The position numbers and the translations under genes are program-made. From Blastocatellia bacterium (lineage in GTDB: Bacteria > Acidobacteriota > Blastocatellia > UBA7656), in NCBI GenBank assembly GCA_963765495.1, contig CAVXWP010000009.1, positions 269,653 to 333,652 of the forward strand: a stretch of 64,000 nt of DNA, in the 5' to 3' direction. The notes under the pieces were generated by a model. It had not been told where the DNA came from and ran no database searches. It was given only the letters and a program-made list of their open reading frames with translations. This document shows positions 1,134 through 62,550 of this stretch, piece by piece. Each line of letters opens with the position of its first letter. The first letter of the stretch is position 1.

Positions 1134-1472
1134 AAAGGCGTCTATAAAGACGATTATTACAAAAGTTCTGACCTGAGACGCAAGACGCGCCTCTTCGACC
1201 TATACTGTATGAAACCTGCATACCGACCATTCAACCTTTTCCTACTTTGTCGCTGTGACTTCGATATAATGAATTGCTAAGGCTTGTAACATGCGGCCAT
1301 TACCTTTGTCAAGCAACGCAAAATAGAGAACAGACCTGTATGTTCTGACACGCTTGCCAATGCGTGAGACGTGATGCGTGAAGAGTGATTCGTGACTTTC
1401 AGACAGGCCGCCTGTCAAAGACCTCTCGCAAGCCTGCTTGCGTCGCGGATCACTCTTCACGCATCACTCTTC

Positions 1473-1693
1473 CAGGGCCATTCAGTTTTTGAGTAGCGGA
1501 CAACAGACGGAAGAAATGTTAAAAGTTGTATTCAAGCAAAGGCGAGTTGAAATAGGCCGGGACGGACGCGGATGCGGCGGATTTTCGCGGATCTGACCCA
1601 ATTAGGTTTAATCCGCGAAAATCCGCCGCATCCGCGTCCGTCCCGGCCTATTCCCAGTTTCCTTATCTACACTTTGAAAACTGAATGGCCCTG
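1473..1693. mobile_element. MITE-like non-autonomous element copy 1 (~220 bp; terminal inverted repeats GGGCCATTCAGTTTTTG ... CAAAACTGAATGGCCC; internal ~93-bp perfect hairpin 1556-1648)
   Basis: Same architecture recurs at about 13448-13649, 15548-15750 and 33487-33707. A solo inner hairpin sits at about 21203-21244. This copy is inserted inside a CACGNATCACG-type palindromic unit. Confidence 0.7.
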
Positions 1694-1792
1694 TCACTCT
1701 TCACACATCACTCTTCACGCATCACGCATGCCCTTTTGAGATCGCGGCCCCCGTGCTATAAAGCCTCTGAGCCTCTATCAGGTTATTAACCC

Positions 1793-4633: not shown

Positions 4634-4768
4634 GTGAATCGTAATACGTGATGCGTGACCGAACCTGTCAGGTAATCACCGATTGCTGATAATTCTGCTA
4701 TAAGTCACGAATCACGAATCACGGTTCACGTTTCCCGCATCACGCATCGCTCTTCACGAGTCACGGAA
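4634..4768. repeat. Representative unit of a dispersed intergenic palindromic repeat family: [GTGATNCGTGA]n - 40-60 nt spacer containing CCGRACCTGWCAG - [TCACGNATCACG]n
   Basis: Further copies at about 1366-1476 plus 1694-1735 (split by a MITE), 7082-7187, 22594-22693, 25271-25360, 33395-33486 plus 33708-33740 (split by a MITE), 40139-40234, 45585-45700 and 62455-62532. All are intergenic and occur in either orientation. Confidence 0.75.
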
Positions 4769-4843: not shown

Positions 4844-5296
4844 ATGCCGTCAAAGTCGGAGTGTCGAATGGATGTGGTTCTGAAGGTTATCAGCGATCAA
4901 TGGACGCTCAGCATCATCCATAAACTCAGCGACGGACCGCGCCGCACATTGGAGCTTTTCGGCGCATTTACCGGAATGAGCACAAAGACATTGAACGCCC
5001 GTCTCAAGAAACTTGAGCGCGACGGCGTAGTGACGAGAATCTCTTACCCGGCATCGCCGCCGCGAGTCGAGTATTCGCTGACCGAAAAAGGGCGCGAGCT
5101 TATTCCTGTACTCGATGCGATAGCAAGGGTGGCATTCAAGTGGAGCGGGCCGTTTCAAACCGACAAAGCAGAAACGCCGTGCCGCGTGTGCGGCAGCTCT
5201 TACAACAGACTGGCATACGAAGAAAAAGCGTCACCCTCGCCCGAGCCTCCCCCCAGACCCCGGTCCCGCAAACTGACCGACGTGACACTACTTTAG
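4844..5296 (+). CDS. HxlR-family winged-helix transcriptional regulator with an unusual Cys/Pro-rich C-terminal tail
   Basis: HxlR-type HTH (VLKVISDQWTLSIIHKLSDGPRRTLELF...YSLTEKG). A GGAGG SD lies 7 nt before the ATG at 4844, so the listed ORF start at 4769 is probably an N-terminal over-extension. Confidence 0.75.
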   Translation: MPSKSECRMDVVLKVISDQWTLSIIHKLSDGPRRTLELFGAFTGMSTKTLNARLKKLERDGVVTRISYPASPPRVEYSLTEKGRELIPVLDAIARVAFKWSGPFQTDKAETPCRVCGSSYNRLAYEEKASPSPEPPPRPRSRKLTDVTLL

Positions 5297-5419
5297 AGGG
5301 ATGAGGGATGAGGGATGAAAAAGATTCTGGCGCATGATCTTGATTAAAAGCGGCTTGCTGATTATCAGAAGAGTTCCTGAGAGTCCTTTTCATCCCTCAT
5401 CCCTCATCCCTCATCCCTT
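5297..5419. repeat. Heptamer-armed palindromic element: (GGGATGA)3 - ~70 bp conserved spacer - (TCATCCC)3; likely bidirectional terminator between convergent hxlR-like and HD-GYP genes
   Basis: Perfect heptamer arms. The spacer is about 85% identical (in inverted orientation) to the spacer of the second copy at about 51703-51900. Confidence 0.7.
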
Positions 5420-7063: not shown

Positions 7064-7188
7064 GAAGAATCCCCTGTTGAAAGTGATTCGTGACGAGTGA
7101 GGAGTGACGAGTGACGCAAGCAGGGTGGCAGGTTATCAAAAACCTGCGCCTTGCCCGATAGTCACGCATCGCGCATCACGCATCACTA

Positions 7189-9588
7189 TTATTCCTGCGG
7201 GCGTTTGAAGAACTTGGTCATCACGAGGCTTGTGCCGTCATCGGCACGCTCGAAACGCACCTCGTCCATCAATCTGCGGATTATATGCAATCCGCGTCCA
7301 CGCAATGCCACGGGCGAGGGGGCGCCGGCAGCCGCAAAACCATCTCCGTTTGCCGAGCCAAAGGTCTTGCCTTTGTTCGATACGGTGATCGTTATGCGGT
7401 CGTCTTGTATGGCAAAGCGCTGGTAAATCTTTCGGTCGGGGCTGTCGCTGTGCTCGGCGGCATTCAGACAGGCTTCGATCAACGCGGTCTTGATCTGATT
7501 GATCGCCTCCTGATCGAAATCAGCCGCGCGGGCTATCTGTTCTACCGTGCGGGCGGCGATCAACTCGGCATCCGCTTCGATAGGTATTACCAGTTCGAAT
7601 TCGCTCAGGGGCTGGCGGAAGGCGAACGATTCCGCAAGCTTGAGGATGTGATCGTAAAGCAGATCGAGTTGAGAATAAGTGGAACAGTAAGCGCGTATGG
7701 CTGATAACCTTTCGACTGTCGCAGCCGAAAAGCCTTCCTTGCTTATATACCATCGAATGATCCGCGCGTGCTGGTTGTTTCTGGCTGCCCGCGCGCCCGT
7801 CTCCAATCGTTGATCGAGACGGCTGAGGGTCTCAAGATCGAGCGGCTCTTTAGAGTTTATGAGCGCGATCAGCCATAAGACTTCGTTGGCTTCGCTGTAG
7901 ATGCCGCCTTCAAATCCGCTGCCCGCAAACAGACGCCAGCTTATTCCGGGCTGCTCGCCCGTGCCCAGGTTTGTGACCATCACTATTTGCGGCAGACGGA
8001 TTTTTTCCTGTTCGTCTTCGAGCGAGCGGCGCACCTGCACGCGACTCATGCCGCGATAGCGATTGTCGAAAGCGGGATGGTCGAGCAGGCTCGCCGGTAC
8101 ATTCTGAAAATCGAAGCTCGATAAAGTCTCTACCAGTTGAGATTCAATCGAGCGATTGTAGCGCGACATCATCAGGCGATAAGAGTGCTTCAGCTTCTCG
8201 CTCAAGAGTTCTTCGCCCGCCACTGGGCGGCGCGCCCCCGCGATCTCGCTGCGGTATTTGGCCCTGACGTAATCGGCGAGCACCGGGTCCGAGGACGGAT
8301 TTACAAACCCGTAACTGATCTCAAGAAATTCGCGCGCGTGCAATCGCCGGAGCAATTCGTCGGGGTCCGAAGCATATTCGCTCATACGCTCGGTGACGGC
8401 TTCAATCGGGACAGCCGTATTGGCTTCGATCACAAGACCGAGCGCTTCAAGCACCGCCCGGCGCGCGCGCGACTCCGGCGCTATGTCGCGCAACAGCGCC
8501 CCTATGTAATGGCAGATGCGACCGTTCAGAACATCTTCCGTATAGACGCGCTCAAACTCCATGAAGGTGCGCAGGTTCGACCCGCGAGAGGCTGTCGCTT
8601 CAAGCAGAGCGCGGATATAAAAAAGATCGCGGTTGAGTTGTTGCAGCATAAGCTCGGTCGTCGAATCGCTTATCTCTATTCGAAACATCGAAGCCGTCGA
8701 GCGAATCATCTGCTCAAGCGGTTCTTCGGCCATCGGCTCGATGCGGATCATCTCGAGTCGGCTGAAGAACTCTTCATCAGGCGGTATCAATTCGATCAGC
8801 GCCCGGCGCAATCCGCATAGCGCATAAACAGGCCCGGCAGGGCTTGCCCCTCCCAGAGTCCGGCTCAGATGGTCGTGCGTGCTGAGCGCCCGCAAGACTT
8901 CCGACCGCAACCCGGCAAGCGATGCGCGCTCGACGGAAGAAGTGAATCCTTGCTCGGCCCGGCCTCCCGCATCCGTCAGCACGTGAAAATTGTCGAGCAT
9001 CACAAAAGGCGCTACCTTTGTGCGCGAAGCCGCGACCATAGGCGCAGAGAGCGCCGAACGCACCATCAGGGCCGTGTCGTCTGATTGCGCCGCCCGCGCA
9101 AAGGCGTCTACAAGTGCCCGCACCCAGAAATAATCTTCGGGCAGGGCAAAGCGCGGCAAGAGGGCAAGCGGCTCGTCGGCCTCGGCTATGAGCTTTGGCT
9201 CGTTGCGGCGAAAGGCTATGAACTGCGCCAGAAATTGAGAAAGATAATCGCGCGCAAACCGATCCGCCTCCATCGAATAGGCCCTGAAGGCGTAATAAAC
9301 GGGCGCGACCTCGCTTGAATCGTTAAAGAGCCGGTCAAAATTTTTGCGGAGCAACTCGGTCTTGCCTACACGCGGAGCGCCGAGCACTAGCGCGTTGGCC
9401 GCTCGTCTGACCCGCGGGGTCGCTCGGAGTCTTTGAAGCTCGCCGGGCGAGTTTTCAGCCTCGCGCGAGGCTGCGGGCGCGCGACGCGCTGTCGCAAGCC
9501 CGCGAAGCTGTTCAAGCTCGGCCTCACGGTCGAAAAACTCGTCATCCGGGAGCCGGCTCAGTACCTGTCTCGGGTCAGAATCACGCAT
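7189..9588 (-). CDS. Fusion protein: N-terminal P-loop AAA/STAND-like ATPase + long helical middle region + C-terminal RsbW/SpoIIAB-like HATPase_c anti-sigma kinase domain
   Basis: 799 aa. Walker A GAPRVGKT and Walker B FVMLDNFH in the N-terminal third. The C-terminal ~140 aa (LIEACLNAAEHS...GRGLHIIRRLMDEV) match the GHKL ATPase of partner-switching serine kinases. Confidence 0.7.
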   Translation of the reverse strand: MRDSDPRQVLSRLPDDEFFDREAELEQLRGLATARRAPAASREAENSPGELQRLRATPRVRRAANALVLGAPRVGKTELLRKNFDRLFNDSSEVAPVYYAFRAYSMEADRFARDYLSQFLAQFIAFRRNEPKLIAEADEPLALLPRFALPEDYFWVRALVDAFARAAQSDDTALMVRSALSAPMVAASRTKVAPFVMLDNFHVLTDAGGRAEQGFTSSVERASLAGLRSEVLRALSTHDHLSRTLGGASPAGPVYALCGLRRALIELIPPDEEFFSRLEMIRIEPMAEEPLEQMIRSTASMFRIEISDSTTELMLQQLNRDLFYIRALLEATASRGSNLRTFMEFERVYTEDVLNGRICHYIGALLRDIAPESRARRAVLEALGLVIEANTAVPIEAVTERMSEYASDPDELLRRLHAREFLEISYGFVNPSSDPVLADYVRAKYRSEIAGARRPVAGEELLSEKLKHSYRLMMSRYNRSIESQLVETLSSFDFQNVPASLLDHPAFDNRYRGMSRVQVRRSLEDEQEKIRLPQIVMVTNLGTGEQPGISWRLFAGSGFEGGIYSEANEVLWLIALINSKEPLDLETLSRLDQRLETGARAARNNQHARIIRWYISKEGFSAATVERLSAIRAYCSTYSQLDLLYDHILKLAESFAFRQPLSEFELVIPIEADAELIAARTVEQIARAADFDQEAINQIKTALIEACLNAAEHSDSPDRKIYQRFAIQDDRITITVSNKGKTFGSANGDGFAAAGAPSPVALRGRGLHIIRRLMDEVRFERADDGTSLVMTKFFKRPQE

Positions 9589-13313: not shown

Positions 13314-13351
13314 GTCGGGGCCGTTGCGCGAAAAGCGAAACGGAATGAGAC

Positions 13352-13431
13352 AGGATAAACAGGATTAGATTGGATTAGACAAGAATTTTGTCTAATCCAA
13401 TCTAATCCTGTTTATCCTGTCTAAGAAAATT
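13352..13431. terminator. Perfect ~37-bp-arm inverted repeat (AGACAGGATAAACAGGATTAGATTGGATTAGACAAGAATTTTGTCTAATCCAATCTAATCCTGTTTATCCTGTCT), 40 bp downstream of the sigma-54 regulator stop
   Basis: Very stable hairpin with a 5-nt loop. Internally it is made of (GGATTAGAT / ATCTAATCC)-like repeats. Confidence 0.55.
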
Positions 13432-13447
13432 CAACTCTTCACACACT

Positions 13448-13649
13448 CAGGTCCATTCAGTTTTTGACTTGCGAGCTGTATGCGACAAAATTTTGCAGGT
13501 TAATTCGAACGAAAGGCGAGTGGGAATAGGCCGGGACGGACGCGGATCTGACACTATTTGGACGAATCCGTGCTAATCCGCCCGATCCGCGTCCGTCCCG
13601 GCCTATTTCTATTTTCCAATTCTACATTTTGGAAAACTGAATGGCCCTG
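13448..13649. mobile_element. MITE-like element copy 2 (TIR GTCCATTCAGTTTTTG ... AAAACTGAATGGCCC; inner hairpin 13530-13603)
   Basis: Conserved frame AAAGGCGAGTGGGAATAGGCCGGGACGGACGCGG ... CCGCGTCCGTCCCGGCCTATT as in copy 1, with a different loop. Confidence 0.7.
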
Positions 13650-13926
13650 TCACACACTGGATTAATCTCCATTCTTTGTAGAATATCCTACAAAACCAAT
13701 TTCGATTATGGTATGCTCGCTCACGAAATATCCGACAGGGTGTTGGGACTTGATCTACCGATTTTCAATTGAAGCAACTTGATAAACTATGCACGACGCG
13801 TGGCTCGCCGCAAATTCGTCAACGATGTATTGGACAATCTAGCGACACATTCCAACGCGCTTTGAGAACTAATACCGGCGGCCCTGCCGCAAGACAATTC
13901 ACCTACTTAGTGGAGGAACACGAAAC

Positions 13927-15522
13927 ATGGCTGATGAAAATATAGACGTTGCTATTGTGGGAGGCGGAGTTTCGGGTGTCTATAGCGCCTGGCGTTTAAG
14001 AAAGGCGAACCCGAAGCGCAAGATCGTCGTCTTCGAAGGCAGCAATCATATCGGCGGGCGGCTGCTATCGGTAACGCCGCCCGACATTCCGAACATGGTA
14101 GCCGAGCTTGGCGGGATGCGCATTCTTCCGGCGGTGCAGCCTCTAATCAAACGACTCATAGATGTATTGAATGAGGAGCTTCCGGCAAGTCAAAAGATCG
14201 AGCTATACGACTTTCCCGTAGACCAGCCGCAAAACATCGCCTACCTGCGAGGCATCTATTTGCGGCTCTCGGATTTCACCGCAAAGCCCGACAAGGTGCC
14301 CTATCATCTCTCTTTTCTGGAGCGCGGCCAGTCTCCCGGCAGCATCATCGTCAACGCCATCGAGCAGATCGTGCCCGGAATCACAAATCCCGATCTCGAC
14401 GAGTATCAACGCCGTCAGATGGTCAAGAATGCAAGTTTCGCCGGAGTGCCGCTCTATAAGCAGGGGTTCTGGAACGTTTTGATGCGCGTCATCAGCGGCG
14501 AGGCATATCAACTCGGCGTTGATGCGGGCGGTTACAACTCGACGCTTACCAACTGGAACGCTGCCGATGCTATCCCGTGGTATCTCTCCGACTTTGGCGT
14601 AGACCCGCAATACAAGGGTTTCAAGAAGGGATTTCAGCAAGTGCCGCAGTCGCTTGCGGAACTCTTCAAAAACACCAAAGACGATATTCGGCTGAAGACG
14701 CCGGTTGACGGATTTAACTGGACGAAGGGAGGGGTTCAGTTGCGAGTCAAAGGCAAGACGATCAACGCGAAGACGCTGATACTGGCCATGCCCCGCCGCT
14801 CGCTCGATCTCCTGGCTCCAAACAGCCCGCCGCTCAATGAGATCAGAGAGATGATTGCAAGCGTTACGCCGCGCCCGCTCTTCAAACTCTTCACGACCTA
14901 CAGCAACCCGTGGTGGCTCGCCGCCGGATACACTGCGCCCGACGGCACCTTCGTCCCCGTCGAAGCGGGACGCACGGTCACCGATCTTCCCGTGCGGCAG
15001 ACTTACTACTGGCCGGAGGATGACGGCTCTCCGGCAACCGATGGCCCGTCTATGTTGATGGCAAGTTATGATGACGGTACGAATATAGGCTTCTGGGACG
15101 GCCTGCGCCCGCGTCGTCGTGAAGCGTGGAAAACGGGGCTTGAGGTTGCGGAACTGGAAGATCCGTTCGTAAGCGAAGATCGAGAGAAGAGGCCGAAACT
15201 CTCCTGGTGGCAGTATAAAGCGCCGCGACGGATGGTCGCCGAAGTGGCGCGCCAGCTTGGGGTGATTCACGGACTCACATACACACCGGCTGTTCGCAAC
15301 GCGGCATTCCGAGATTGGGGAGATGATCCGTTTGGCGGCGGCTGGAACAGTTGGAACATCGGCGTGAAAAGCTGGGAAGTAAAACGGCAGATCATCCAGC
15401 CGTTTGACAAGCGCCCGCTCTACATTTGCGGCGAAGCCTATTCGGATGCTCAAGGGTGGGTCGAAGGCGCGCTGCAAACGGCAGATATGATGCTGGAAAA
15501 GATGGGAATCGGCTCGCTATAA
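13927..15522 (+). CDS. FAD-dependent amine oxidase-family oxidoreductase (flavin monoamine/L-amino-acid oxidase-like)
   Basis: 531 aa; N-terminal dinucleotide fold VAIVGGGVSGV; amine-oxidase-like length and C-terminal FAD region; SD GGAGGAAC upstream. No signal peptide. Embedded in AT-rich DNA between two MITE-like repeats. Confidence 0.7.
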   Translation: MADENIDVAIVGGGVSGVYSAWRLRKANPKRKIVVFEGSNHIGGRLLSVTPPDIPNMVAELGGMRILPAVQPLIKRLIDVLNEELPASQKIELYDFPVDQPQNIAYLRGIYLRLSDFTAKPDKVPYHLSFLERGQSPGSIIVNAIEQIVPGITNPDLDEYQRRQMVKNASFAGVPLYKQGFWNVLMRVISGEAYQLGVDAGGYNSTLTNWNAADAIPWYLSDFGVDPQYKGFKKGFQQVPQSLAELFKNTKDDIRLKTPVDGFNWTKGGVQLRVKGKTINAKTLILAMPRRSLDLLAPNSPPLNEIREMIASVTPRPLFKLFTTYSNPWWLAAGYTAPDGTFVPVEAGRTVTDLPVRQTYYWPEDDGSPATDGPSMLMASYDDGTNIGFWDGLRPRRREAWKTGLEVAELEDPFVSEDREKRPKLSWWQYKAPRRMVAEVARQLGVIHGLTYTPAVRNAAFRDWGDDPFGGGWNSWNIGVKSWEVKRQIIQPFDKRPLYICGEAYSDAQGWVEGALQTADMMLEKMGIGSL

Positions 15523-15547
15523 AGGCCTCAGGACCATTCAGTTTTTG

Positions 15548-15750
15548 GCCCGCGAGCATTTGGCGTCAAAAACCTTAAAGGTTAATTTGACCGAAGGGTT
15601 TCCGCTAATAGGCCACGGATGACACGAATCGGACGGATTTACGCGGATCGAGTCATATAAGCTTCAGATCAGTGTAAATCCGTCCGATTCGTGTCATCCG
15701 TGGCCTATTCCCATTTCCATTATTTATATTCTGAAAGCCGATTGGACCTG
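15548..15750. mobile_element. MITE-like element copy 3 (left TIR GACCATTCAGTTTTTG; degenerate right TIR; inner hairpin 15611-15705 with diverged stem sequence)
   Basis: Same framework and spacing as copies 1, 2 and 4. Together with copy 2 it flanks the FAD amine oxidase gene. Confidence 0.6.
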
Positions 15751-21166: not shown

Positions 21167-21202
21167 GCGATAGTCATCCGGTCTCCCGCAACAGGTAGTT
21201 CA

Positions 21203-21244
21203 GGCGAATAGAAATAGGCCGGGACGGCCTATTTCTATTCGCCT
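21203..21244. terminator. Solo copy of the MITE inner-hairpin base (GGCGAATAGAAATAGGCCGGGACGGCCTATTTCTATTCGCC) downstream of the protease gene
   Basis: Perfect 19-bp arms that share the AATAGGCCGGGACGG motif of the MITE inner stem. Lies 37 bp after the stop at 21166. Confidence 0.5.
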
Positions 21245-21394
21245 TTCGTTCAACTTCATCTCAACTGTTATCTGTGCCGGACAGATCGTAAAGCCCTTGC
21301 GTCGAGAGCTTGCGACCACTGAAACCGCCGTGTTAGATTGAGTTTCACTGTAATACTTTTCAATTCCGCCTTACGGCAATGGGGGTAAAACCAA

Positions 21395-22579: not shown

Positions 22580-22760
22580 AAGCCCTGCCAATGCATGATG
22601 CGTGATTATCGTGATGCGTGATTCGTGATTTAGCAGGCTTGCAAGTCGTTTAAAATCGGCGGCCTGCCTGAAAGTCACGAATCACGCATCGTTTCCCCCA
22701 TCTTTGAAGCAAGTAATCACTCGTGTTAATATGCGTTTCAGGGTGTTTTGGGAGGATGAT

Positions 22761-23024: not shown

Positions 23025-23054
23025 GCAATCAGCCCGAAAAAATTCGCCACAGAG

Positions 23055-23099
23055 GCACAAAGACACAGAGAAAAGATTTTGATAAACCTCTGTGTCTTT
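23055..23099. terminator. Strong hairpin, probable Rho-independent terminator after the small Cys protein gene
   Basis: 24-bp perfect arms CCACAGAGGCACAAAGACACAGAG / CTCTGTGTCTTTGTGCCTCTGTGG with a 17-nt loop. Confidence 0.55.
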
Positions 23100-23251
23100 G
23101 TGCCTCTGTGGCTATTTCGACCTTTTAGAGCCTTCACGCTTTTGTCAAAACCTTGCTTCTCAGGTTAAAATATATCTTACGATGCAACGAGCCTTGAACC
23201 CGGCCGATGCTGCTCTGTCCTGGCTTTTCATTTTTTGTTGAGGAGACTTAG

Positions 23252-25264: not shown

Positions 25265-25373
25265 TTAATGACACTTGATGCGTGATGCGTGAGATTTGCG
25301 ACGAGTTTTTAATCAGCTACCTACCTGAAAATCACGCATCACGCATCAAGTGTCACTCTGAGGAGATAACTCG

Positions 25374-33394: not shown

Positions 33395-33486
33395 TATGAT
33401 GCGTGATTATCAGGAAGGCTGTTTGTAAAGACCAACTCCCAAGCCTGCTTGCGTCACGCTTCACGCATCACGAATCACGAGTCACG

Positions 33487-33707
33487 CAGGGCCATTCAGT
33501 TCTTGAGTTGAGGGCAATAGGCGGAAAAAATATTAAAGGTTGAATTGACGCAAAGGCGAGTTGAAATAGGCCGCGGATGACGCGGATGCGGCGGATTTTC
33601 GCGGATCTGACCCAATTAGGTTTAATCCGCGTAGATCCGCTCGATCCGCGTTATCCGCCGCCTATTCCCCTTATCCTTTTCTACATATTGGAAAACTGAA
33701 TGACTCT
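33487..33707. mobile_element. MITE-like element copy 4 (TIR GGGCCATTCAGTTCTTG ... AAAACTGAATGACTC; inner hairpin ~33570-33662 nearly identical to copy 1)
   Basis: The inner-hairpin loop GCGGATCTGACCCAATTAGGTTTAATCCGCG is shared with copy 1. Like copy 1 it is inserted in a CACGNATCACG unit (between tsaB and mutS). Confidence 0.7.
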
Positions 33708-33819
33708 GCGAATCACGAATCACGCTCCGCGAATCACGCCAATGGCGCTGGCCATTCTTTCCTTCGCGGTTTAATATAAATTTCCTAAGCCGAAATACTC
33801 AGGACCTGTTCCGAATCTT

Positions 33820-38026: not shown

Positions 38027-39343
38027 TCAATGTATTTTTATGATTTGCAAAAAACTCTCGCCCAGACGCGACCAGTCGTAAGCGGCAACCGTTTGCCTTG
38101 CGTTTTCGGCAAGCCGCAGGCCCATCTCGGGATTGCTCAAAATAAGGTTCAACTTATCGGCCAGCATCCGGTGATTCCCCGGCTCGAAAAGCAGGCCGTT
38201 CTGCCCCTCAACGATGATTTCGGCAAGCCCGCCCACATTTGATGCAATGACGGGACACCCCAGAGCCATAGCCTCAAGACAGACGACCGGCAATCCTTCG
38301 GTCCTTCCGCAGGGTAGCACAAGCGAAGGAATCACCACCACGTCGGAGGCGGAAACCAACCGTTCACGTTCATCCGCCCCGACCCTCCCCAAAAACGTCG
38401 CATCCACCGATAAGCGCCTTGCACGCGCTTCAAGCTTCTGCCTCAACTCCCCGTCACCCGCTACGATGAGCCGCGCACCATCAAGATATTGCAAGGCTTC
38501 GAGCAGCACCTCGACTCCCTTGATCTCAATCAATCGACCTATGAACAAAACATTTTTACCGGATGACGATTGATTGTAGGGGCGATTGACGCATGATGTG
38601 CTAACGCACGGCGCGGGCTTATCCCCGTCCGAATCCGCCGTTGGCGCGATGGCAGTCATCGCCCTTCGGGCGATCCGGGCAGGGACAAGCCCTGCCCCTA
38701 CATTCGCCTCGCATGGTTGATTTAGGTTTACGCCCATCGGCAGCACATCTATTTTATCGTCTGCATCGGGGCAGAGGCCGAGGAGTTTGTCTTTCAAATC
38801 TGCGCTCACGGTGATGACGCGGCGACTGGAATTGACTATGAAACGGGCGAGCAGGCGGCCCCCCTTCATTCGAATAAGCAGGTGCAGCGCGCCGGAATGT
38901 TCGATGACGATGTGGGGTTTTCGAGTGAGCCGGGCTATTACCGCACCCGTCAGACCCGAAGGCAGCATCCAGTGGGAACAGATCACATCTGCCGAAAGCG
39001 CCTCTCTGAAAGCTGCTATGAAGAAAGACAGAACAGAAACCAGCGCGGCGATTTTGACCGGCCAGCGCCTTCCGAGCGCGAGATTGAAATCCGCACTCGC
39101 CTGCAAAGGATCAAGAGCCCGGGGCAAAAGCGCGGGCGCGCGTGTCAGGGTGAAGACATCAGGCGGATGGCCATCCGCCTGATGGTCTTCCGCCCGATTA
39201 TCAGAGGGCGCGAGCACGCGGACCTGAAAATCCGAACCGATGCGGCGAGCAAATTCTCGAACATAGCCGCAGGTCTCATCCTCCGGCCCGCGCGGGAACG
39301 AACTGGTGAGGATGAGTATTTTAGGTCTTCTCTGGTTCTTCAA
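38027..39343 (-). CDS. GT4-family glycosyltransferase carrying a ~50-aa insertion encoded by a REP-like palindromic element in the interdomain linker
   Basis: C-terminal GT4 motif EGLPVVCLEAMALGCPVIASNVGG. The segment PCEANVGAGLVPARIA...VNRPYNQ is encoded by the palindrome at about 38640-38705, which recurs intergenically at about 47468-47553. TTG start. Confidence 0.75.
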   Translation of the reverse strand: MKNQRRPKILILTSSFPRGPEDETCGYVREFARRIGSDFQVRVLAPSDNRAEDHQADGHPPDVFTLTRAPALLPRALDPLQASADFNLALGRRWPVKIAALVSVLSFFIAAFREALSADVICSHWMLPSGLTGAVIARLTRKPHIVIEHSGALHLLIRMKGGRLLARFIVNSSRRVITVSADLKDKLLGLCPDADDKIDVLPMGVNLNQPCEANVGAGLVPARIARRAMTAIAPTADSDGDKPAPCVSTSCVNRPYNQSSSGKNVLFIGRLIEIKGVEVLLEALQYLDGARLIVAGDGELRQKLEARARRLSVDATFLGRVGADERERLVSASDVVVIPSLVLPCGRTEGLPVVCLEAMALGCPVIASNVGGLAEIIVEGQNGLLFEPGNHRMLADKLNLILSNPEMGLRLAENARQTVAAYDWSRLGESFLQIIKIH

Positions 39344-40115: not shown

Positions 40116-40229
40116 TCTTCGCTCCAAAGATAAGGGTAAGTGAATCGTGAATCGTGATTCGTGAAATAGCTGATTACCTGTTAATTGCCATCAGCCTGTC
40201 AGGTCCGGTCACGCATCACGCATCACGAT

Positions 40230-42023
40230 TCACTTCTCGCGTCTTTTATAAACCGCGATATCGGCTGTTTTTCCTATCTGATCATAGCCCGCGCTCACCA
40301 GATCGCGCACGTTTCTATCTTTCAATTTGTCTTCCATAAGAATCAATTTGAATTGCCTGCCTTCTATCTGCTCAAGCACGGCTTCTCTGTCGCCGCCCTT
40401 CAGACCCACTGAATGCCACCATACAAATCGAGTGGGATTGCTGCGGCCTGTAAGAAAATAAAATGCGGTGCCTCGCTTTGCAAAAGAGAAAATGTAATCA
40501 TCCGTCGAGCTATTGCTTTCAATCAAACTCGCCAGCCCCTCTATCAATTCCGCCTGTCTTCGTCTTACGAGTATTCCGCGCGCGCTATTGATTTGCAGCC
40601 CGGTTCGCTCAATAAAATGAAGGCTTGAATCGAAATGCGGCTGCCAGGTGTCTTTGATGCCCGTCGCAAAGAAAAATACCAGCGGAGCCGCCGCGCAAAG
40701 TAATGTCGCGCGTTTGGAGAGAGGCAAGCGCATTTGAAAATAAGCCAGCAATGCGGGCAGCAATCTTGCCGCAAACAAGGTTGCGAGAAGAAACACGAGA
40801 GGCAGCACTCGCACAAGATGATAGTAATCGGCTCGCGGGTAGAGTTCCAGATATGCGCCTATCGCAAAAAGAGCCGTGAAGACGATTGCTCCGTGCAAGC
40901 GCCACCAATCGCGCCTCAAAGCGTCATTTCGATAAATTCTCTTCAATTGAAAGAAGGCGATTATCACTGCCAGAAAGAATAGAAAGATCGGGAAATAAGC
41001 GACCGCCGCCGAAGCCGATGCTTTAATCCGGTAGAGGCGGCCGGGAATCAAAACGGCCACGGCTCCGGCGCAAACAGTTAAGCCCGCGTAAAGCATAAAG
41101 AGTTTTGGAGCTTTGGTGAGCACTATAAATCCACCCGCAATTATTACGAGCGAGGCGAGCGCAAACGCAGCGACCAGCTTGATCGAGGGAAGCGGAACCG
41201 ATTTCTCTTCCCCATATGCCAGCGCGTGATGCAGGAAATGATCTACCATAGCTCCCAGCGCATTGTTGAAAGCCAGATACAAAACCATCGCCCCGGCGAG
41301 AATCGCAAAGCCTATCCAGTAAATCGCAGCCCGCTTTATGACGACCGAAATCAATCGCGGACGGAAGGCTGATTCGCCCGCGATCATCGCCTCCCTGATC
41401 GCAATTGCCAGCGTGCCCGATCCAAGCAAAAAGATGCCCACGTTGTATTTGAAGACAAAGACTACGCCCGCCGCCATTCCGCCAAACAGTATCCAGCGCA
41501 TCTTTTCGCTCTCGTCATAGTTGAGCATAAAGATCAGACCGCACAGGATAAAGAGCATAGAATATTGAGTCGGAACTATGGCGTAGATGTAATTGTGACC
41601 TAGCCAGAAGAGTGTCAGAGCTACGGGGATGAGCGCGACCAGGGGCGAAGTCAATCTTTGCCCGATGTAAAACACCGCCACGAGCGTGCCCAGCTTGAAG
41701 GCAAAGAGCCCTGCTCTCGCTGTCATGACAGTTGCGCCAAACAGCTTCATAAGCAAGGCGTTTAACCACAGCAGGCCGGGCGTGTAGTTGTAGAGGAAAT
41801 CTCTGTAAGGGACTTCTCCGTTCAAGACTCGTTCGGCGGGCGCAAGGCTATAGCCTATGACCGAAAGCCACAGACCGCGATTTATAAAGATGCCGTAACA
41901 GACAATCCCGGCAAGGAGTGTTATCGCAAGCGGGACAACTCGATTTAAGCCTTTGAGCCGTTCCTGCTTTGTTGAGCGTTCATCCAAACGCGCGGGCTTG
42001 CTTTGCATCGTAGAGCTTTGCAT
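40230..42023 (-). CDS. GT-C fold membrane glycosyltransferase (ArnT/PMT family 39/83-like)
   Basis: 597 aa, more than 10 TM helices. The conserved N-terminal loop GEVPYRDF is shared with the downstream paralog. Confidence 0.55.
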   Translation of the reverse strand: MQSSTMQSKPARLDERSTKQERLKGLNRVVPLAITLLAGIVCYGIFINRGLWLSVIGYSLAPAERVLNGEVPYRDFLYNYTPGLLWLNALLMKLFGATVMTARAGLFAFKLGTLVAVFYIGQRLTSPLVALIPVALTLFWLGHNYIYAIVPTQYSMLFILCGLIFMLNYDESEKMRWILFGGMAAGVVFVFKYNVGIFLLGSGTLAIAIREAMIAGESAFRPRLISVVIKRAAIYWIGFAILAGAMVLYLAFNNALGAMVDHFLHHALAYGEEKSVPLPSIKLVAAFALASLVIIAGGFIVLTKAPKLFMLYAGLTVCAGAVAVLIPGRLYRIKASASAAVAYFPIFLFFLAVIIAFFQLKRIYRNDALRRDWWRLHGAIVFTALFAIGAYLELYPRADYYHLVRVLPLVFLLATLFAARLLPALLAYFQMRLPLSKRATLLCAAAPLVFFFATGIKDTWQPHFDSSLHFIERTGLQINSARGILVRRRQAELIEGLASLIESNSSTDDYIFSFAKRGTAFYFLTGRSNPTRFVWWHSVGLKGGDREAVLEQIEGRQFKLILMEDKLKDRNVRDLVSAGYDQIGKTADIAVYKRREK

Positions 42024-45582: not shown

Positions 45583-45698
45583 AGAGTGATCCGTGATGCG
45601 CGATACGCGATACGTGATTCGTGATTCGTGACCGGACCTGACAGCCAGTCAGCGTTTCCCTGCTATCTCCCTATAAATCACGCATCACACATCACGCA

Positions 45699-47378
45699 TT
45701 ATCCAAGGTATCCCCAGCCGCGCAGACGCTCGCGTATCTCTTCGCTCTCTTCATCGGTCATCGCACCGGCTTTCTCGGCTTCCACTTCGGCAACGGCGTC
45801 GGAAATTCTCACGGGATTGGCCCGCATGTACTCTTCGGTGAAGATCTCTTCCAGCACGCGGCCGTCCATATCCGACGGCACTTCCACGCCAAAGCTGTGA
45901 AGGATGGTCGGCGCGTAATCGATTATTCGCGCTCCCTCAACCGTAGCGCCGCGACGAAGCTCCGGCCCGCGCCCAAGCATTATGCCGTGCATGCGGTGGT
46001 CGCCTGAATTGCCGTAGACCTGAGTGATGAATTTGTTCGATGTGAGATCGAGCGTGCCAAGAGGTTTGTTCGACATATCGGCGGGCAAAAACTGTATGTC
46101 GGGCGACTCGTCGCTGTGCGGCCCCGTGTAGAGGTCTTCGCGCCGCCAGATGGGGCCGATCAACGCCTGGCCGGTTTCGGGGTCCGAGAGCGCGCCAAGC
46201 TTGCCGATGATCGACTCCAGTGTGCGATCATACTCAGCGCCCGGCTCGACTATCCCGTGCTTTTCGCGCCCGCGCAGGTTGATAAATATCTGCCCGTAAT
46301 TGCCCTTTGAAAAGGCCGTTGTCCGCGACCAGTCTACGTCTTCGAGCGAAAGCATCAGCATATTGGCCAGCTTCATCAGGCTCGAGCGATTTGTCACGCC
46401 TACGGAAAGACGCAAGTGAGCAAGCCCCAGTTTCATAGCCGAGCGATAGGCCAGATCAGGCGTAAGCCCGAGCCTGAACAGCACCCGCTTCATCCGCGTC
46501 ATCGCATCGCGCTTCAACACAAGCAAGCCTTCGTTTATCAGCCACACGTTAAAGCAGAGGAATTTCTTTATAGGCCCGAATCCGTGATCCGATCCCATAT
46601 AAATAGTCGCGTCCTCGCCTGCTTCATCAAACATCTCGCCAAGCGTAGTGTCTACCGCGTGCCAGTATTCGTGAATGCGTCCGATGTGGGCCAGATGCTC
46701 TTTGCGATTAAAGAAAGGGTGCGTCTCGTCGAGCAGATGCCACAGTTCGTGCTGAAACCTGTCGGTCCCCCAGTAGTGAGTGGCAAAGACATCCCAGCCG
46801 TATTCGTTCATCAGGTAGCGGTTGACTTTGGTCTTATATTCGAGTTCTTCAAATAGCTGGTTGAGAATCTTATCCACATTGCCGGGCGTATAGACCTCGG
46901 TAATGTAAAGCTGGTACGGGCCGAATCGCGACTCGATTTCCTTTAGCAGGCTCTCGGGATAGGTGAAGTCCTGGCGGCCTCGCGGGGTGAGAAAATCCGA
47001 GACCATAAGTCCGTTTGCCATCATGGGCGGATAGGTGCAGGGCATATTCGTGACTATGGCCTGCCGACCCATGCGGCCAAGTATGTCCCAGAAAGGAAGC
47101 CCGTCGCGCGCCCTGGAACTGACGGGCATATCGGGCAGTTCGCCCGAATCCTTGCGCCGGAGCAAAAACTCGAATATGCCGTGTTTTCCGGGATTTTTGC
47201 CGGTCATCCACGACACCCAGGCGGTCGGCGTGATCGGCGGAATAGTGGTTTCAAGCAATCCGCGAACGCCTTCACTGATAAAGGCGGAGAGTCGGGGCAT
47301 CAAGCCCTCTTTCATCAACGGATCGAGAACGTCGAATGTCGAGCCATCAAGGCCGATGAATAGAACTTTTTTACTCAT
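45699..47378 (-). CDS. Cytoplasmic alkaline-phosphatase-superfamily enzyme (type I phosphodiesterase/NPP-like), paralog 1, with the C-terminal EE..RERLRGWGYLG tail
   Basis: AP-superfamily metal ligands: GLDG near the N-terminus, nucleophile region PPITPTAW and SDHGFG. No signal peptide. ATG at 47378 (MSKKVLFIGLDG). Confidence 0.7.
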   Translation of the reverse strand: MSKKVLFIGLDGSTFDVLDPLMKEGLMPRLSAFISEGVRGLLETTIPPITPTAWVSWMTGKNPGKHGIFEFLLRRKDSGELPDMPVSSRARDGLPFWDILGRMGRQAIVTNMPCTYPPMMANGLMVSDFLTPRGRQDFTYPESLLKEIESRFGPYQLYITEVYTPGNVDKILNQLFEELEYKTKVNRYLMNEYGWDVFATHYWGTDRFQHELWHLLDETHPFFNRKEHLAHIGRIHEYWHAVDTTLGEMFDEAGEDATIYMGSDHGFGPIKKFLCFNVWLINEGLLVLKRDAMTRMKRVLFRLGLTPDLAYRSAMKLGLAHLRLSVGVTNRSSLMKLANMLMLSLEDVDWSRTTAFSKGNYGQIFINLRGREKHGIVEPGAEYDRTLESIIGKLGALSDPETGQALIGPIWRREDLYTGPHSDESPDIQFLPADMSNKPLGTLDLTSNKFITQVYGNSGDHRMHGIMLGRGPELRRGATVEGARIIDYAPTILHSFGVEVPSDMDGRVLEEIFTEEYMRANPVRISDAVAEVEAEKAGAMTDEESEEIRERLRGWGYLG

Positions 47379-47439
47379 AACAAAAGACCGGAAAATATAA
47401 CTGATGAGTGCGCGGATTTCAACCGCACCCGTCCTGGCG

Positions 47440-47580
47440 ACAGGGCTGTAACAAAGTCGGGTGGAAATGTAGGGGCAGGGCTTGTCCCTGCCCGGATCGC
47501 CCAAAGGGCGATGACAGCGATTCGGGCAGGGACAAGCCCTGCCCCTACATTACATTTCAAGCTACTTTGTTATAGCCCTG
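47440..47580. repeat. Nested ~140-bp palindrome containing two inverted copies of the GGGCAGGGACAAGCCCTGCCC(CTACATT) REP-like hairpin plus a GATCGCCCAAAGGGCGATGAC mini-hairpin, bounded by CAGGGCTGTAACAAAGT / ACTTTGTTATAGCCCTG
   Basis: Intergenic, between AP-family paralog 1 (start 47378) and the Wzx stop (47669). The same REP-like unit occurs inside the GT4 coding sequence at about 38640-38705. Confidence 0.7.
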
Positions 47581-49206: not shown

Positions 49207-51873
49207 TTACTCCTGTCGAGCCGCGCGTCTCTGTCTTCGCACAAACGCTATGATCAGAAACGCAAAGACGACTCCCGCCCCGGCCAGGCTCGCATAAACG
49301 GAAGACCAGAAGGCTGCGGGCGCAAATTGAAATGATACCACATGACCGCCGGGCGGCACTCTTACGGCCCGCATGGTGATATTGGCTTGCAGGATGTCGG
49401 CAGGCTCCCCGTCAATCGTAGCCCTCCAGCCGGGATAGTAATTATCGCTCAGCACCAGCAGGCCGCCCTGTTCGCTTTCCGTAGAGATCACAACCCGGTT
49501 GCGAGCGTCTTCGGTTATCCGAGCCTCGCCGCCGGATTTGAGATTTGAGATTTGAGATTTGAAATCTGGGGTTTCAGATTGCGAATTATCAGGCGCTTCG
49601 ATGACGGCAGTCGTGTGAGGGTCGAAACCCGGATCGTTCATCGCCGAGATCGCATACGAATGGTTGGGAACCGTCTCCGCCTGCTCCGCAAAGAACGCGC
49701 GCGGCAGGGCCTGTTTGTTCTCATAAACCGCGATTCCCTCTTCCGAGGCAATCAGGTCATAGCCTTCAAGAGGCGGGAGCGAACTGTGAGTCAGCACATA
49801 CCTGACATTCAACAGGTCGAAATATCGAGAGCGGGCCTGATCGAAGACTACGTGGCTCAAGTAGGGCTGTTTCTCGATGAGCGCGGCATACTGGCGATAC
49901 CACTTTGGAAACTGCTGATTCTTTCCCGTCACGGTCGAGATGCGATAGGGCAGCAGAGTGTTTGGCGGGGCGATGATCTTCTCTCTATCGGGCAAATCCG
50001 ACGCCCGGCGATTCGTGTCGAGATCGGAAGGGACTATGAGCACGCGGCCCGGTGGGAGCCGGTGCAACAATTCGGTTATCTTTGTTTCGGGAAAGACACG
50101 CGAGCGATCAAAGGTCGGGTTGAATTGCGCGCTGTTCCAGAAGAGGTCTACTAAAAGCATTAGCATCAACAGGGCAAAAAAAGCTCTGCTACTCAACTGC
50201 GACGAAGCGAATTTGCTCAGCAGGATTACAACTCCGACAATCAGCGCGAGCGGTATGATCAGCGCGGCATCGGGCGGCGTAAACTGAGCGGCAAGCGCGG
50301 CTGCCGATCTTCGCAGGAAAGCGATTTTACCCGATTGCTCGTTGTCCAGGGCGAATCCGGTTAGCTCTAACAGGTAAGACGCGATGACTCCTAAAATCAC
50401 AAATGCGATTGCTCCCCACAGAAACTTTCGAGCGATGCGGGCAAAAGAAGCTAGCAGGTCCGGCTTCGCACTCAAGAGCAAATCGATTCCAAACGCGGCA
50501 AGCACAGCCGCCGCGAATATGAACAGTACCCAGGCGCGAACTATCACGCGAATGACCTGCAAGACGGGGATAAACCTCGTCATATGAACATAAATCGGAG
50601 CCGCAATCATTATGACCAGAGCAAGGGCGGCAAGCAGGGCGAAGAAGACGACGCGGGGACGCTGAGACGCTGAGAGGCGGCGATTCTGTTTCAGCCAGAA
50701 AAGGCCGAAGCCGAGCGGGGCAAGCGCGGCAATGCCCATATACAGGATGTGGTCGTGCGAGACTCCGAGCGCGGTAAAGATTCTGACTATTTCGGCGTCG
50801 TCGGCCGTGCCAAAGAGATTAGGAAAAACCAGCGTAAACAGATACCACGGGGGCAAGTAGATGTAACCCAGTTCCGTTGGCACTATGCGCCGGTTTGAAA
50901 ATCTGAGCAATTGCATCACGGGAATCCACGCGGGGGCCGCAAGCAGGAAACCTACCACGAGAGTTACGGCAAGCATCCCGAGCGCATTCAAGTTTTTCTT
51001 TGACCGCCAGTTCTTGAATTCGAATGCAAAGAATAGGTAGTAGAGCGCAATCGCGCCTACGTAATAAATCTGGTTCTGCATCCATCCGCAATAAAATTGC
51101 AGCGCCAGGAAGACGCCCGCGATAATCGCCTGCGTGTAGCTCTGCTGCCTTGCGGCGCGGTCTACGAACAGCAGGATCAGCGGCAGCCACATAAGCCCGC
51201 CCCACCATCCAAGCCCCGTAACGTGTAATAACGAATGCGACGACAGAACGAATACGAGCGCGCCAAGCAGGCTGGCGGGCTCGCTCGCGCCCACTCCGAT
51301 AAGAAAGATGTACATGAAGATTGCCGCAAGCATCAGTTCAAAGATGCGGGCGAGTGAATAGCCTAGCGGCACGTCAAAGAATTTATAGAAAAGCAGAAAA
51401 GGCGAAAGCGTTCTGGTCACTCCGTCGGCATAGATGGGGTGCCCCGCCATCGTGTAGGGATTCCACAACGGCATCTCTCCATCGCGGTACGCCTGAACCA
51501 CAAAGTAATCGCGCGTTATATAGGTATCGGTCAGATCGCGGCGGTTGTAGTTGTAATCGATGCTCTCGCCCGCGTAGTACCCCCAGGGAAGCTGATTGTT
51601 GAGCGTGGCTACATCGACAAAAGTCTCGCCAAGAAAGAGCACCCGCCAGAACAGGGCTATGATAACCAGCGCGAGAAACGAGGCATTTACAGCGTGGCGC
51701 TGAAAGGATGAAGGATGAGGGATGAGGGATTTCAGGAGGGATAAGGGATGAGGGATGAGGGATTTCAGGAGGGATGAGGGATGAGGGATGAGGGATGAAA
51801 AGGACTCTGAGGAATTATCCTGATAACCAGCGGGCCGCTTTTCATCAGACTGTCGCGTCAGAATCTTTTTCAT
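49207..51873 (-). CDS. YfhO-like large polytopic membrane protein (putative GT-C glycosyltransferase); N-terminal boundary uncertain
   Basis: Multi-TM N-terminal body and the conserved YfhO-type C-terminal region LSDNYYPGWRATIDGEP...GGHVVSFQF plus a final TM. The 5-prime ~170 nt of the listed ORF is built from the GGGATGA heptamer-repeat element (SLIPHP repeats), so the true start may be downstream. An in-frame TTTGAGA heptamer block sits at about 49531-49565. Confidence 0.55.
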   Translation of the reverse strand: MKKILTRQSDEKRPAGYQDNSSESFSSLIPHPSSLLKSLIPHPLSLLKSLIPHPSSFQRHAVNASFLALVIIALFWRVLFLGETFVDVATLNNQLPWGYYAGESIDYNYNRRDLTDTYITRDYFVVQAYRDGEMPLWNPYTMAGHPIYADGVTRTLSPFLLFYKFFDVPLGYSLARIFELMLAAIFMYIFLIGVGASEPASLLGALVFVLSSHSLLHVTGLGWWGGLMWLPLILLFVDRAARQQSYTQAIIAGVFLALQFYCGWMQNQIYYVGAIALYYLFFAFEFKNWRSKKNLNALGMLAVTLVVGFLLAAPAWIPVMQLLRFSNRRIVPTELGYIYLPPWYLFTLVFPNLFGTADDAEIVRIFTALGVSHDHILYMGIAALAPLGFGLFWLKQNRRLSASQRPRVVFFALLAALALVIMIAAPIYVHMTRFIPVLQVIRVIVRAWVLFIFAAAVLAAFGIDLLLSAKPDLLASFARIARKFLWGAIAFVILGVIASYLLELTGFALDNEQSGKIAFLRRSAAALAAQFTPPDAALIIPLALIVGVVILLSKFASSQLSSRAFFALLMLMLLVDLFWNSAQFNPTFDRSRVFPETKITELLHRLPPGRVLIVPSDLDTNRRASDLPDREKIIAPPNTLLPYRISTVTGKNQQFPKWYRQYAALIEKQPYLSHVVFDQARSRYFDLLNVRYVLTHSSLPPLEGYDLIASEEGIAVYENKQALPRAFFAEQAETVPNHSYAISAMNDPGFDPHTTAVIEAPDNSQSETPDFKSQISNLKSGGEARITEDARNRVVISTESEQGGLLVLSDNYYPGWRATIDGEPADILQANITMRAVRVPPGGHVVSFQFAPAAFWSSVYASLAGAGVVFAFLIIAFVRRQRRAARQE

Positions 51874-51900
51874 CCCTCATCCCTCATCCCTCATCCCTCA
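51703..51900. repeat. Second, expanded copy of the GGGATGA-heptamer palindromic element (internally duplicated left arm)
   Basis: GGATGAAGGATGAGGGATGAGGGATTTCAGGAGGGATAAGGGATGAGGGATGAGGGATTTCAGGAGGGATGAGGGATGAGGGATGAGGGATGAAAA - spacer - TTTTTCATCCCTCATCCCTCATCCCTCATCCCTCA. Confidence 0.7.
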
Positions 51901-56545: not shown

Positions 56546-56604
56546 ATCCAGAGTTTTGAGTTTTGAGTTTTGAGTTTTGAATTAACTCAAAATTCAAAAC
56601 TCAA
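56546..56604. repeat. Heptamer-armed hairpin (GAGTTTT)4 GAATTAA CTCAAAATTCAAAACTCAAAACT between AP-family paralog 4 and cysC
   Basis: Near-perfect inverted repeat of tandem heptamers. A sister copy at about 57351-57416 lies upstream of cysC. Confidence 0.7.
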
Positions 56605-56611
56605 AACTTGC

Positions 56612-57350: not shown

Positions 57351-57416
57351 AGTTTTGAGTTTTGAGTTTTAGGTTTTGAGTTAATTCAAAACTTAAAACT
57401 CAAAACTCAAAACTTA
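57351..57416. repeat. Second GAGTTTT-heptamer hairpin (TTTTGAGTTTTGAGTTTTAGGTTTTGAG TTAATT CAAAACTTAAAACTCAAAACTCAAAAC)
   Basis: Same family as 56546-56604. The two copies bracket cysC. Confidence 0.7.
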
Positions 57417-57506
57417 ATTGCGCTTGACATGCCAGCGGCTCGAAGTTAATAATCGCGGCGCTTCCTTAAATTTACCCGTGCAAAACCTCTGAGGGGAAAA
57501 GATCGA

Positions 57507-60513: not shown

Positions 60514-60587
60514 ATAACTCGACTGGATAACTCGACTGGATAACTCGACTGGATAACTCGACTGGATAACTCGACTGGATAACTCTA
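60514..60587. repeat. Tandem array of a 13-bp direct repeat ATAACTCGACTGG (5 full copies + partial) between the usp gene and the NSS transporter gene
   Basis: Perfect 13-bp periodicity, starting 1 nt after the usp stop codon. Confidence 0.8.
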
Positions 60588-60617
60588 GCCCGCAAATTCG
60601 AGAGGAGATATTGATTT

Positions 60618-62449: not shown

Positions 62450-62550
62450 TAATTGATGAGTGATTCGTGATTTGTGATTCGTGACCGGACATAGCAGTCT
62501 ATCAAAACAACGGATCACGCATCACTCATCAAGCTTCTCGCACCTTGAGC

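Follow-up and report, generated by a model that had tools for sequence, protein, structure and literature searches.

Bacterial genomes carry several families of non-coding, non-autonomous DNA transposons (MITEs), including Correia of Neisseria, ERIC/IRU, the MaeMITEs of Microcystis and Nezha of cyanobacteria. These are small, intergenic and multi-copy, are bounded by terminal inverted repeats (TIRs) and a target-site duplication, and fold back on themselves as whole elements. Among insertion sequences, ends that start with CAGGG, together with a duplication of 8-10 bp (the range given by ISfinder), are the hallmark of the ISAs1 family. For ISAs1, inverted repeats of 14-22 bp that start with CAGGG and a direct repeat of about 10 bp have been described (PMC11946415), and the family member ISArsp11 has the inverted repeat CAGGGCTGATGCAAAGTCG and a 10-bp direct repeat (PMC6305408). 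A shallow literature search found no published MITE attributed to ISAs1. The repeats described here are MITEs with ISAs1-type ends; the kind is known and the family is new. They are best explained as elements moved in trans by a DDE transposase of the ISAs1 family, a reading to which a probability of roughly 0.87 is assigned.

The window, meaning the whole 64-kb stretch of DNA that was analysed, is unremarkable chromosomal DNA of a Blastocatellia-like acidobacterium. Alignment identified four full copies of the repeat in it, all on the plus strand, all intergenic and scattered between housekeeping genes:

1473..1693, plus strand: MITE copy 1, 221 bp, with left TIR CAGGGCCATTCAGTTTTTG and right end ...AAAACTGAATGGCCCTG
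13448..13649, plus strand: MITE copy 2, 202 bp, its left hairpin arm shortened by a 19-nt deletion
15529..15750, plus strand: MITE copy 3, 222 bp, the most divergent, with a degenerate right TIR
33487..33708, plus strand: MITE copy 4, 222 bp

A four-copy family had been reported at these sites by the initial annotation, and the copies there are indeed homologous, with pairwise identities of 66-84% over their 202-222 bp; a profile built from them regains all four in the window at E 1e-59 to 1e-73 (nhmmer). The start first given for copy 3 (15548) lay 19 nt too far in and omitted the left TIR, the true start being 15529. Beyond the four copies, the profile matches only a region around 21200 within the 64-kb window (nhmmer).

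The inverted repeats that had been noted at the termini are real, reaching CAGG.../...CCTG for a total of 19 bp (CAGGNCCATTCAGTTTTTG / CAAAACTGAATGGNCCTG), as is typical of a MITE. The left TIR is the best-kept part of the element (89-95%), while the right TIR is conserved at 63-95%; copies 1 and 4 start with CAGGG, copy 2 with CAGGT and copy 3 with CAGGA. A 14-nt core of the TIR, allowing up to 3 mismatches, occurs 14 times in the window against 5.0 expected, and the eight best matches are both ends of the four copies. From left to right, the 19-bp left end CAGGNCCATTCAGTTTTTG is followed by a 59-nt A-rich spacer ending in AATAGGCC and by a long hairpin, after which come GGCCTATT, a 24-nt spacer and the right end CAAAACTGAATGGNCCTG. 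The entire element folds at -138 kcal/mol (z -16) in copy 1 and at -108 kcal/mol (z -11) in copy 3, confirming the long inner hairpins that had been described. Folding of the element as a whole is shared with the bacterial MITEs named above; unlike in those, the inner stem is a separate 42-bp near-perfect palindrome of tandem 9-mers, nested between asymmetric 59- and 24-nt spacers. The longest open reading frame touching any copy is 55 aa and extends into the flank, stops occur in all six frames, and translated MITE frames used as a protein query for spurious ORFs returned nothing at E <= 0.1. At 202-222 bp, the repeats lie within the limit of about 600 bp for such short, non-coding elements, and with four full copies and one degenerate copy in 64 kb they are dispersed and multi-copy.

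Duplications of fixed length, 9 bp, border three of the four copies:

1464..1472 and 1694-1702, no strand: target-site duplication of copy 1, TCACTCTTC / TCACTCTTC, 9/9
13439-13447 and 13650-13658, no strand: target-site duplication of copy 2, TCACACACT / TCACACACT, 9/9
33478-33486 and 33709-33717, no strand: target-site duplication of copy 4, CGAGTCACG / CGAATCACG, 8/9

Direct repeats were likewise sought just outside the ends of copy 3, and no target-site duplication was found. Since the flanks of copy 1 are 7-periodic and a 9-nt offset would mismatch, the identity of the 9-mers there reflects a true duplication. Inspection of the flanks had been suggested as a check on mobility, and its outcome (perfect duplications at copies 1 and 2, one of 8/9 at copy 4, none at copy 3), together with the 19-bp TIRs and the scattered, non-coding, intergenic copies, bears out the designation as a MITE-like family.

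The nature of the ends points to the transposase. Inverted repeats of 19 bp that begin with CAGGG (copies 1 and 4) and a 9-bp direct repeat are features of an ISAs1 derivative. When JGI metagenomes were scanned with the left TIR alone, 26 loci were recovered, which is about the chance expectation for 18 specified bases; the free position was G in 20 of the 26. In five of these loci (L034, L027, L024, L033 and L012) the TIR adjoins an ISAs1-type transposase gene (tblastn). The transposase of L034 (103-1221, 372 aa) contains Pfam domains PF13808 (DDE_Tnp_1_assoc) and PF01609 (DDE_Tnp_1) and scores 237.9 bits against NCBIfam NF033564 'ISAs1 family transposase', for which the cut-off is 70. The L034 element is 1390 bp long with right end GGAAAACTGAATGACCCTG, and the L033 element is 1378 bp long with right end CGAAAACTGAATGGCCCTG. 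These right ends were outside the query, which held the left end only, and they match the MITE right end at 18/19 positions, the left/right asymmetry included, so that both MITE ends recur nearly base for base in the two elements. Ends in common with an autonomous element, as expected for a MITE, are therefore provided by metagenomic elements of 1378-1390 bp that carry an ISAs1 transposase. A further locus (L032, 675-848, minus strand) holds a distinct 174-bp non-coding MITE with the same ends and a perfect duplication, CTTCACAGG, of the same 9-bp length; its internal sequence is unrelated to that of the window MITE and forms a long hairpin of its own (-90 kcal/mol, z -7.8).

The window MITE thus resembles the ISAs1 insertion sequences (ISAs1 and ISArsp11; L034, L027/L024, L033 and L012) in its 19-bp CAGGG-type TIR and in the length of its duplication. 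It differs from them in that its copies measure 202-222 bp and encode nothing, in that the similarity is confined to the 19-bp ends, and in that two copies start with CAGGT or CAGGA instead of CAGGG. A likeness seen by eye between the MITE spacers and the subterminal regions of the metagenomic insertion sequences was rejected (shuffle p 0.04-0.98). As there is no significant similarity past the 19-bp ends, what is claimed is a set of shared recognition ends and not descent by deletion from these particular elements. Within the 64-kb window no ISAs1 transposase was found (tblastn), nor any transposase, integrase or recombinase among its 47 ORFs; the search for an insertion sequence with the same TIRs, proposed at the outset, therefore succeeded in metagenomes and not in the window. 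In the proposed mechanism, an ISAs1-type transposase would recognise the 19-bp TIRs CAGGGCCATTCAGTTTTTG and cut the target with a 9-bp stagger, the repair of which would leave the 9-bp duplication.

A separate observation concerns L027, where on minus strand 1-70 the right end of one element, CAAAACTGAACAGCCCTG, is followed by GGT and then by the left end of another, CAGGGCC...; the right flank of L034 also begins with GGT. The end-GGT-end arrangement of L027 may represent two elements in tandem, the junction of a circular form or a wrap-around in the assembly.

Insertion sequences that reproducibly enter one position of an intergenic hairpin family are known, namely IS1397 and ISKpn1, which insert into BIMEs, and elements of the IS110/IS1111 type, which insert into REPs. 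Copies 1 and 4 behave similarly, although here the transposase family is another, the target is a TCAC-heptamer array and only 3-4 events are at hand. TCAC, in the orientation of the element, is present in 3/4 of the window duplications and in the L032 duplication, whereas it is found in 9.6% of the intergenic 9-mers of the window on either strand (binomial p ~0.003 for 3/4). Two host structures took copies of the element:

1364..1728, no strand: host heptamer-arm hairpin, (GTGANNN)n - loop - (TCACNNN)n, the right arm of which took copy 1
33397..33740, no strand: homologous heptamer-arm hairpin, loop 74-80% identical to 1364-1728, the right arm of which took copy 4

Two copies had been described as lying in repeat units, which is correct for copies 1 and 4 inside TCAC-heptamer arrays, and the suggested target-site preference is upheld both by the frequency of TCAC in the duplications and by this pair of homologous hairpins. 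The two copies entered equivalent positions, 3 nt apart, with different duplications. Insertion would accordingly prefer TCAC-containing sequence, above all the right arm of host heptamer-repeat hairpins.

The same pair of loci invites the reading that an intergenic block was copied by local segmental duplication instead of transposition, as the flanks of copies 1 and 4 are homologous, at 74-80% over ~100 nt on the left and in their heptamer arrays on the right. This is very improbable. The duplications agree within each locus and differ between the loci (TCACTCTTC vs CGAGTCACG), with a 3-nt shift between the two junctions, a pattern that a single insertion followed by divergence would not give and that indicates independent insertions rather than one duplicated block. 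Further, copies 2 and 3 have unrelated flanks, the homology between the flanks of copies 1 and 4 is that of a hairpin family distinct from the MITE, which occurs without it about 9 times in the window, and elsewhere the same TIRs enclose transposase genes.

The host hairpins form a family in their own right, intergenic, with tandem GTGANNN in the left arm, inverted TCACNNN in the right arm and a loop of 40-45 nt. They are seen at 1364-1728, 4634-4767, 7083-7189, 22611-22691, 25269-25355, 33397-33740, 40140-40236, 45586-45698 and 62460-62543, with homologous loops at 1396-1445, 33420-33450 and 22631-22675 (inverted). Because they occupy co-directional and divergent gaps alike, they are not simply terminators. 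Hairpins of the same architecture are built from other units, GGGATGA at 5296-5418 and 51706-51900 and AGTTTTG at 56552-56608 and 57351-57417, and further repeat-built hairpins lie at 13348-13422 (unit GGATTAGA) and 23041-23117. Of 17 heptamer-periodic arrays, at least 7 have an inverted counterpart no more than 200 nt away. That one architecture is built from differing units suggests a process peculiar to the lineage or a system of protein-binding repeats. Heptamer-arm hairpins were also found in the contig with the closest MutS (L008, GCA_975196295.1, MutS 84% aa), at 9470-9550 and 1069-1170 with units CCATCAG/CTGATGG and of the TCAGC type, and none were found in three other Blastocatellia-like contigs (L004-L006).

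The region around 21200 that the profile matched contains what had been listed as a solo hairpin:

about 21170-21321, minus strand: probable degenerate fifth copy, frame hairpin 21202-21244 kept, inner hairpin absent

The hairpin at 21202-21244 exists (perfect, 20 bp, matching the frame at 19/21 positions on the minus strand), but it is not solo, forming instead the core of a probable degenerate fifth copy. Two collinear minus-strand matches to the profile were obtained (nhmmer), model positions 44-88 at 21269-21225 (E 0.0016) and 168-217 at 21226-21174 (E 0.053), the second of which reaches a degenerate right end. Of the TIRs, the right one can be made out in degenerate form and the left one hardly at all; model positions 89-167, corresponding to the inner hairpin, are absent, cut exactly at the stem base. 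Judged from these matches, the region is probably an old inverted fifth copy that has lost its palindrome. Long palindromes are loss-prone. As this copy is inverted and lacks the inner hairpin, the element needs neither a fixed orientation nor that hairpin.

Palindromes are known to be corrected from arm to arm by quasipalindrome template switching. Such correction and the Foldback elements offer the nearest likeness to the inner hairpin, since there as here perfect arms differ between copies, adjacent double changes are mirrored on the opposite arm and the arms consist of short tandem units. Foldback elements are eukaryotic and unrelated to the window MITE, the likeness being structural only. 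The inner hairpins of the four copies are as follows:

1551..1652, plus strand: inner hairpin of copy 1, a perfect stem of 42 pairs topped by a small apical stem
13525-13548 / 13584-13607, plus strand: inner hairpin of copy 2, a 24-bp perfect stem with a 35-nt loop
15607-15709, plus strand: inner hairpin of copy 3, 2 mismatches in 42
33565-33666, plus strand: inner hairpin of copy 4, 7 mismatches in 42

Stem mismatches in copies 1-4 therefore number 0/42, 0/24, 2/42 and 7/42. Each arm comprises about four tandem 9-mers, (G/A)CGGATNNN, and the 19 nt missing from the left arm of copy 2 were deleted between two CGCGGAT repeats; copies 2 and 3 had been said to keep equal length and structure, which the short stem and large loop of copy 2 contradict. 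The picture of a variable hairpin inside an invariant frame is also not upheld. The hairpin arms are 61-89% identical between copies (excluding the copy 2 deletion), the spacers 50-76% and the apex 32-100%, so that the arms are not more variable than the spacers, and the frame sequence AAAGGCGAGTTGAAATAGGCC is kept at only 12/21 positions in copy 3, 9/21 differing from copies 1 and 4. The constant part of the frame is only the stem base, AATAGGCC / GGCCTATT. Near identity of copies 1 and 4 holds for the left inner arm and the apex and fails for the outer stem and for the right arm, where 10/33 positions differ.

The copies are in fact mosaics. The outer stem is GGGACGGAC in copies 1 and 2 and GCGGATGAC / ACGGATGAC in copies 4 / 3, so that copies 1 and 4, in other respects the closest pair, are divided by this variant. 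The left arm of copy 4 is of the copy 1 type (ATGC) and stands opposite a right arm of the copy 2/3 type (CGAT), and the clash gives G.G and C.C mismatches where CG and GC are swapped; in copy 1, the right arm is a perfect mirror of the left. Eight pairs are changed on both sides, and paired cells make up 96.8%, compared with 90.5% in shuffles. The observed pairing or covariation score was reached by 0/500 shuffles, a result drawn from four related sequences and of a kind that a DNA palindrome can also give. Sliding the partners by 1-3 columns lowers pairing to 30-45%.

Arm complementarity is actively kept, as seen in the mirrored changes in eight pairs and the few stem mismatches, and the hairpins differ from one another by one deletion, by the mosaic distribution of two variants of the outer stem and by substitutions that are mirrored. 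The mirrored substitutions fit either arm-to-arm templated correction with exchange between copies or selection on the hairpin, and four copies cannot separate these. Under the preferred explanation, the inner hairpin would be cargo of the element and not a gene, and its complementarity would be kept during drift, most likely by quasipalindrome template switching and exchange between copies. Alternatively, selection may act for a stable DNA hairpin or a read-through RNA hairpin serving as terminator, insulator or 3'-end stabiliser.

A more active role for the inner hairpin is unlikely but deserves some weight. In that case it would not be passive cargo; the lineage would make and preserve intergenic foldback hairpins with arms of short tandem repeats, and the MITE would have captured one of them, would carry it to new sites as a mobile module that terminates transcription, insulates or binds protein, and would home back to such hairpins. 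The hairpin arms of this lineage (the TCACGNA, GGGATGA and AGTTTTG heptamers and the MITE 9-mers (G/A)CGGATNNN) all have the same polarity, GAT on the left and ATC on the right. If this were true, the mirrored substitutions would result from selection on a structure that the host recognises, or from a process dedicated to homogenising hairpins.

The palindrome also recalls an integron attC-like or recombination cassette site, or a REP/BIME- or IS200/IS605-type palindrome moved by a Y1 (HUH) transposase, being imperfect, intergenic, conserved in its outer bases and variable at its centre, and lying in a genome rich in REP-like hairpins. Such an origin is scarcely credible, given that the 47 ORFs of the window include no tyrosine recombinase, RAYT or TnpA(Y1), that RYYYAAC / GTTRRRY cores are absent and that the copies do not lie in cassette arrays; moreover, Y1-moved elements have neither TIRs nor a duplication, and the window element has both.

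The position of the copies relative to genes is regular. Every full copy lies 100-278 nt upstream of a plus-strand gene and in the same direction as that gene:

1793, plus strand: gene 3' of copy 1, EamA transporter, 100 nt downstream of the copy
13927-15522, plus strand: gene 3' of copy 2, amine oxidase
3' of copy 3, plus strand: Ser/Thr kinase gene
3' of copy 4, plus strand: mutS, 112 nt downstream of the copy

Copy 3 begins 6 nt past the amine oxidase stop codon. In general, a copy has the end of one gene on one side and the promoter region of the following gene on the other, and good -35/-10 boxes were seen by eye downstream of copies 1 and 3. These are positions where insertions are tolerated, and a strong hairpin there could terminate or insulate transcription. 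Copies 2 and 3 bracket the flavin amine oxidase gene (13927-15522). The closest homologues of this gene (91-77% aa) lie in wholly different neighbourhoods, usually behind a TPP-enzyme gene; at the DNA level, similarity to the nearest one (L004) ends exactly at the stop codon. The gene was possibly brought in or rearranged via recombination at the MITE copies. That copies 2 and 3 form a composite transposon with the amine oxidase gene between them was considered and rejected, because copy 2 has its own two-sided duplication.

Other repeats and paralogues were recorded in the window. Six tandem copies of the 13-mer CTGGATAACTCGA lie at 60497-60598, just upstream of a sodium:neurotransmitter symporter gene (60618). 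A 35-nt GC-rich repeat, GCGAT(C/T)CGGGCAGGGACAAGCCCTGCCCCTACATT, which is unrelated to the MITE, is found at 38670-38704 and, as a 35-bp inverted pair, at 47466-47551. A large minus-strand polysaccharide/glycosyltransferase cluster (36524-57295) contains four paralogous genes for type I phosphodiesterase / nucleotide pyrophosphatase (53583-56539, 51898-53541, 45699-47504).

The shared orientation of all four full copies with the gene 100-278 nt downstream, the compensatory changes in eight stem pairs and the very stable fold could be taken to indicate a structured non-coding RNA gene family or a cis-regulatory RNA module, with the frame as scaffold, a covarying functional stem and a transcript in the plus orientation. 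Across the four copies the stem mismatches comprise 4 G.T and 0 A.C, which favours a plus-strand RNA weakly (one-sided p ~0.06); this strand asymmetry was dropped as evidence, the numbers being too small. An RNA of this kind is improbable. The spread of the element is already explained by its TIRs, its 9-bp duplications and the identity of its TIRs with those of ISAs1 insertion sequences. Rfam gave 0 matches at gathering score, those far below threshold being generic long hairpins (eukaryotic miRNA precursors). The copies have no promoter or terminator in common, and no T-run follows the stem: in searches for promoter-like sites, none were found at copy 1 and copy 2 gave two weak 9/12 matches, one per end and strand and unshared. 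A sigma-54 / sigma-70 promoter in the right end was also entertained and rejected, since by eye the GG/GC spacing is off by one and scans gave no conserved match. Unlike in most RNA genes, the loop and the single-stranded spacers are the least conserved parts (32-76%). Half of one arm is lost in copy 2, the fifth copy is inverted and has no inner hairpin, and a mutational mechanism can preserve the complementarity of a palindrome without selection. The structured RNA gene or cassette envisaged by the initial annotation thus finds no Rfam family, no conserved promoter or terminator, no integrase in the window and a fifth copy that lacks the hairpin; the mirrored substitutions are the sole surviving part of that intuition.

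Returning to the ISAs1-mobilised MITE, copies outside the window were sought in several collections. Two Logan contigs (run ERR11718635) are identical to the window and come from the same organism. One ends 29 nt inside copy 4; the other starts with the last 30 nt of copy 2 and breaks off in the middle of the copy 3 palindrome. Logan assemblies use k = 31. Since the contigs break about k deep in the copies and the terminal 30-mers are unmatched among the window copies, further copies with exactly these ends probably lie elsewhere in the genome. In the GTDB species-representative genomes, a search with the TIR and AATAGGCC gave only two chance matches, in Arthrobacter and in a Promethearchaeia MAG, and in the JGI metagenomes the TIR with both frame boxes gave 0 matches, so the MITE family itself is absent there. 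No copy was detected by nhmmer in contigs with amine oxidase homologues (L004-L007, 91-82% aa) or in L008 with the closest MutS, and none of the contigs L004-L008 has synteny usable for an empty-site comparison. A 17-mer scan of viral contigs gave 18 matches in phage coding sequence, none with a second end or with similarity past the ends. As the family was seen in no other genome or metagenome, its mobility rests on 4-5 copies only; with the nearest MutS only 84% identical, the lineage is poorly sampled.

In summary, the family is ordinary selfish DNA, notable only for its self-complementary core and its insertion into repeat-built hairpins. Its description allows a repeat overlooked by gene callers and RNA-family libraries to be cleanly annotated in Blastocatellia-like Acidobacteriota, connects a MITE to the ISAs1 family, and accounts for the breaks in short-read assemblies of this organism at MITE sites. 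Hundreds of copies from a full genome would make a natural data set for weighing palindrome-templated correction against RNA-level selection, and the MITE may be used for studying how insertions are targeted into repeat-built hairpins.
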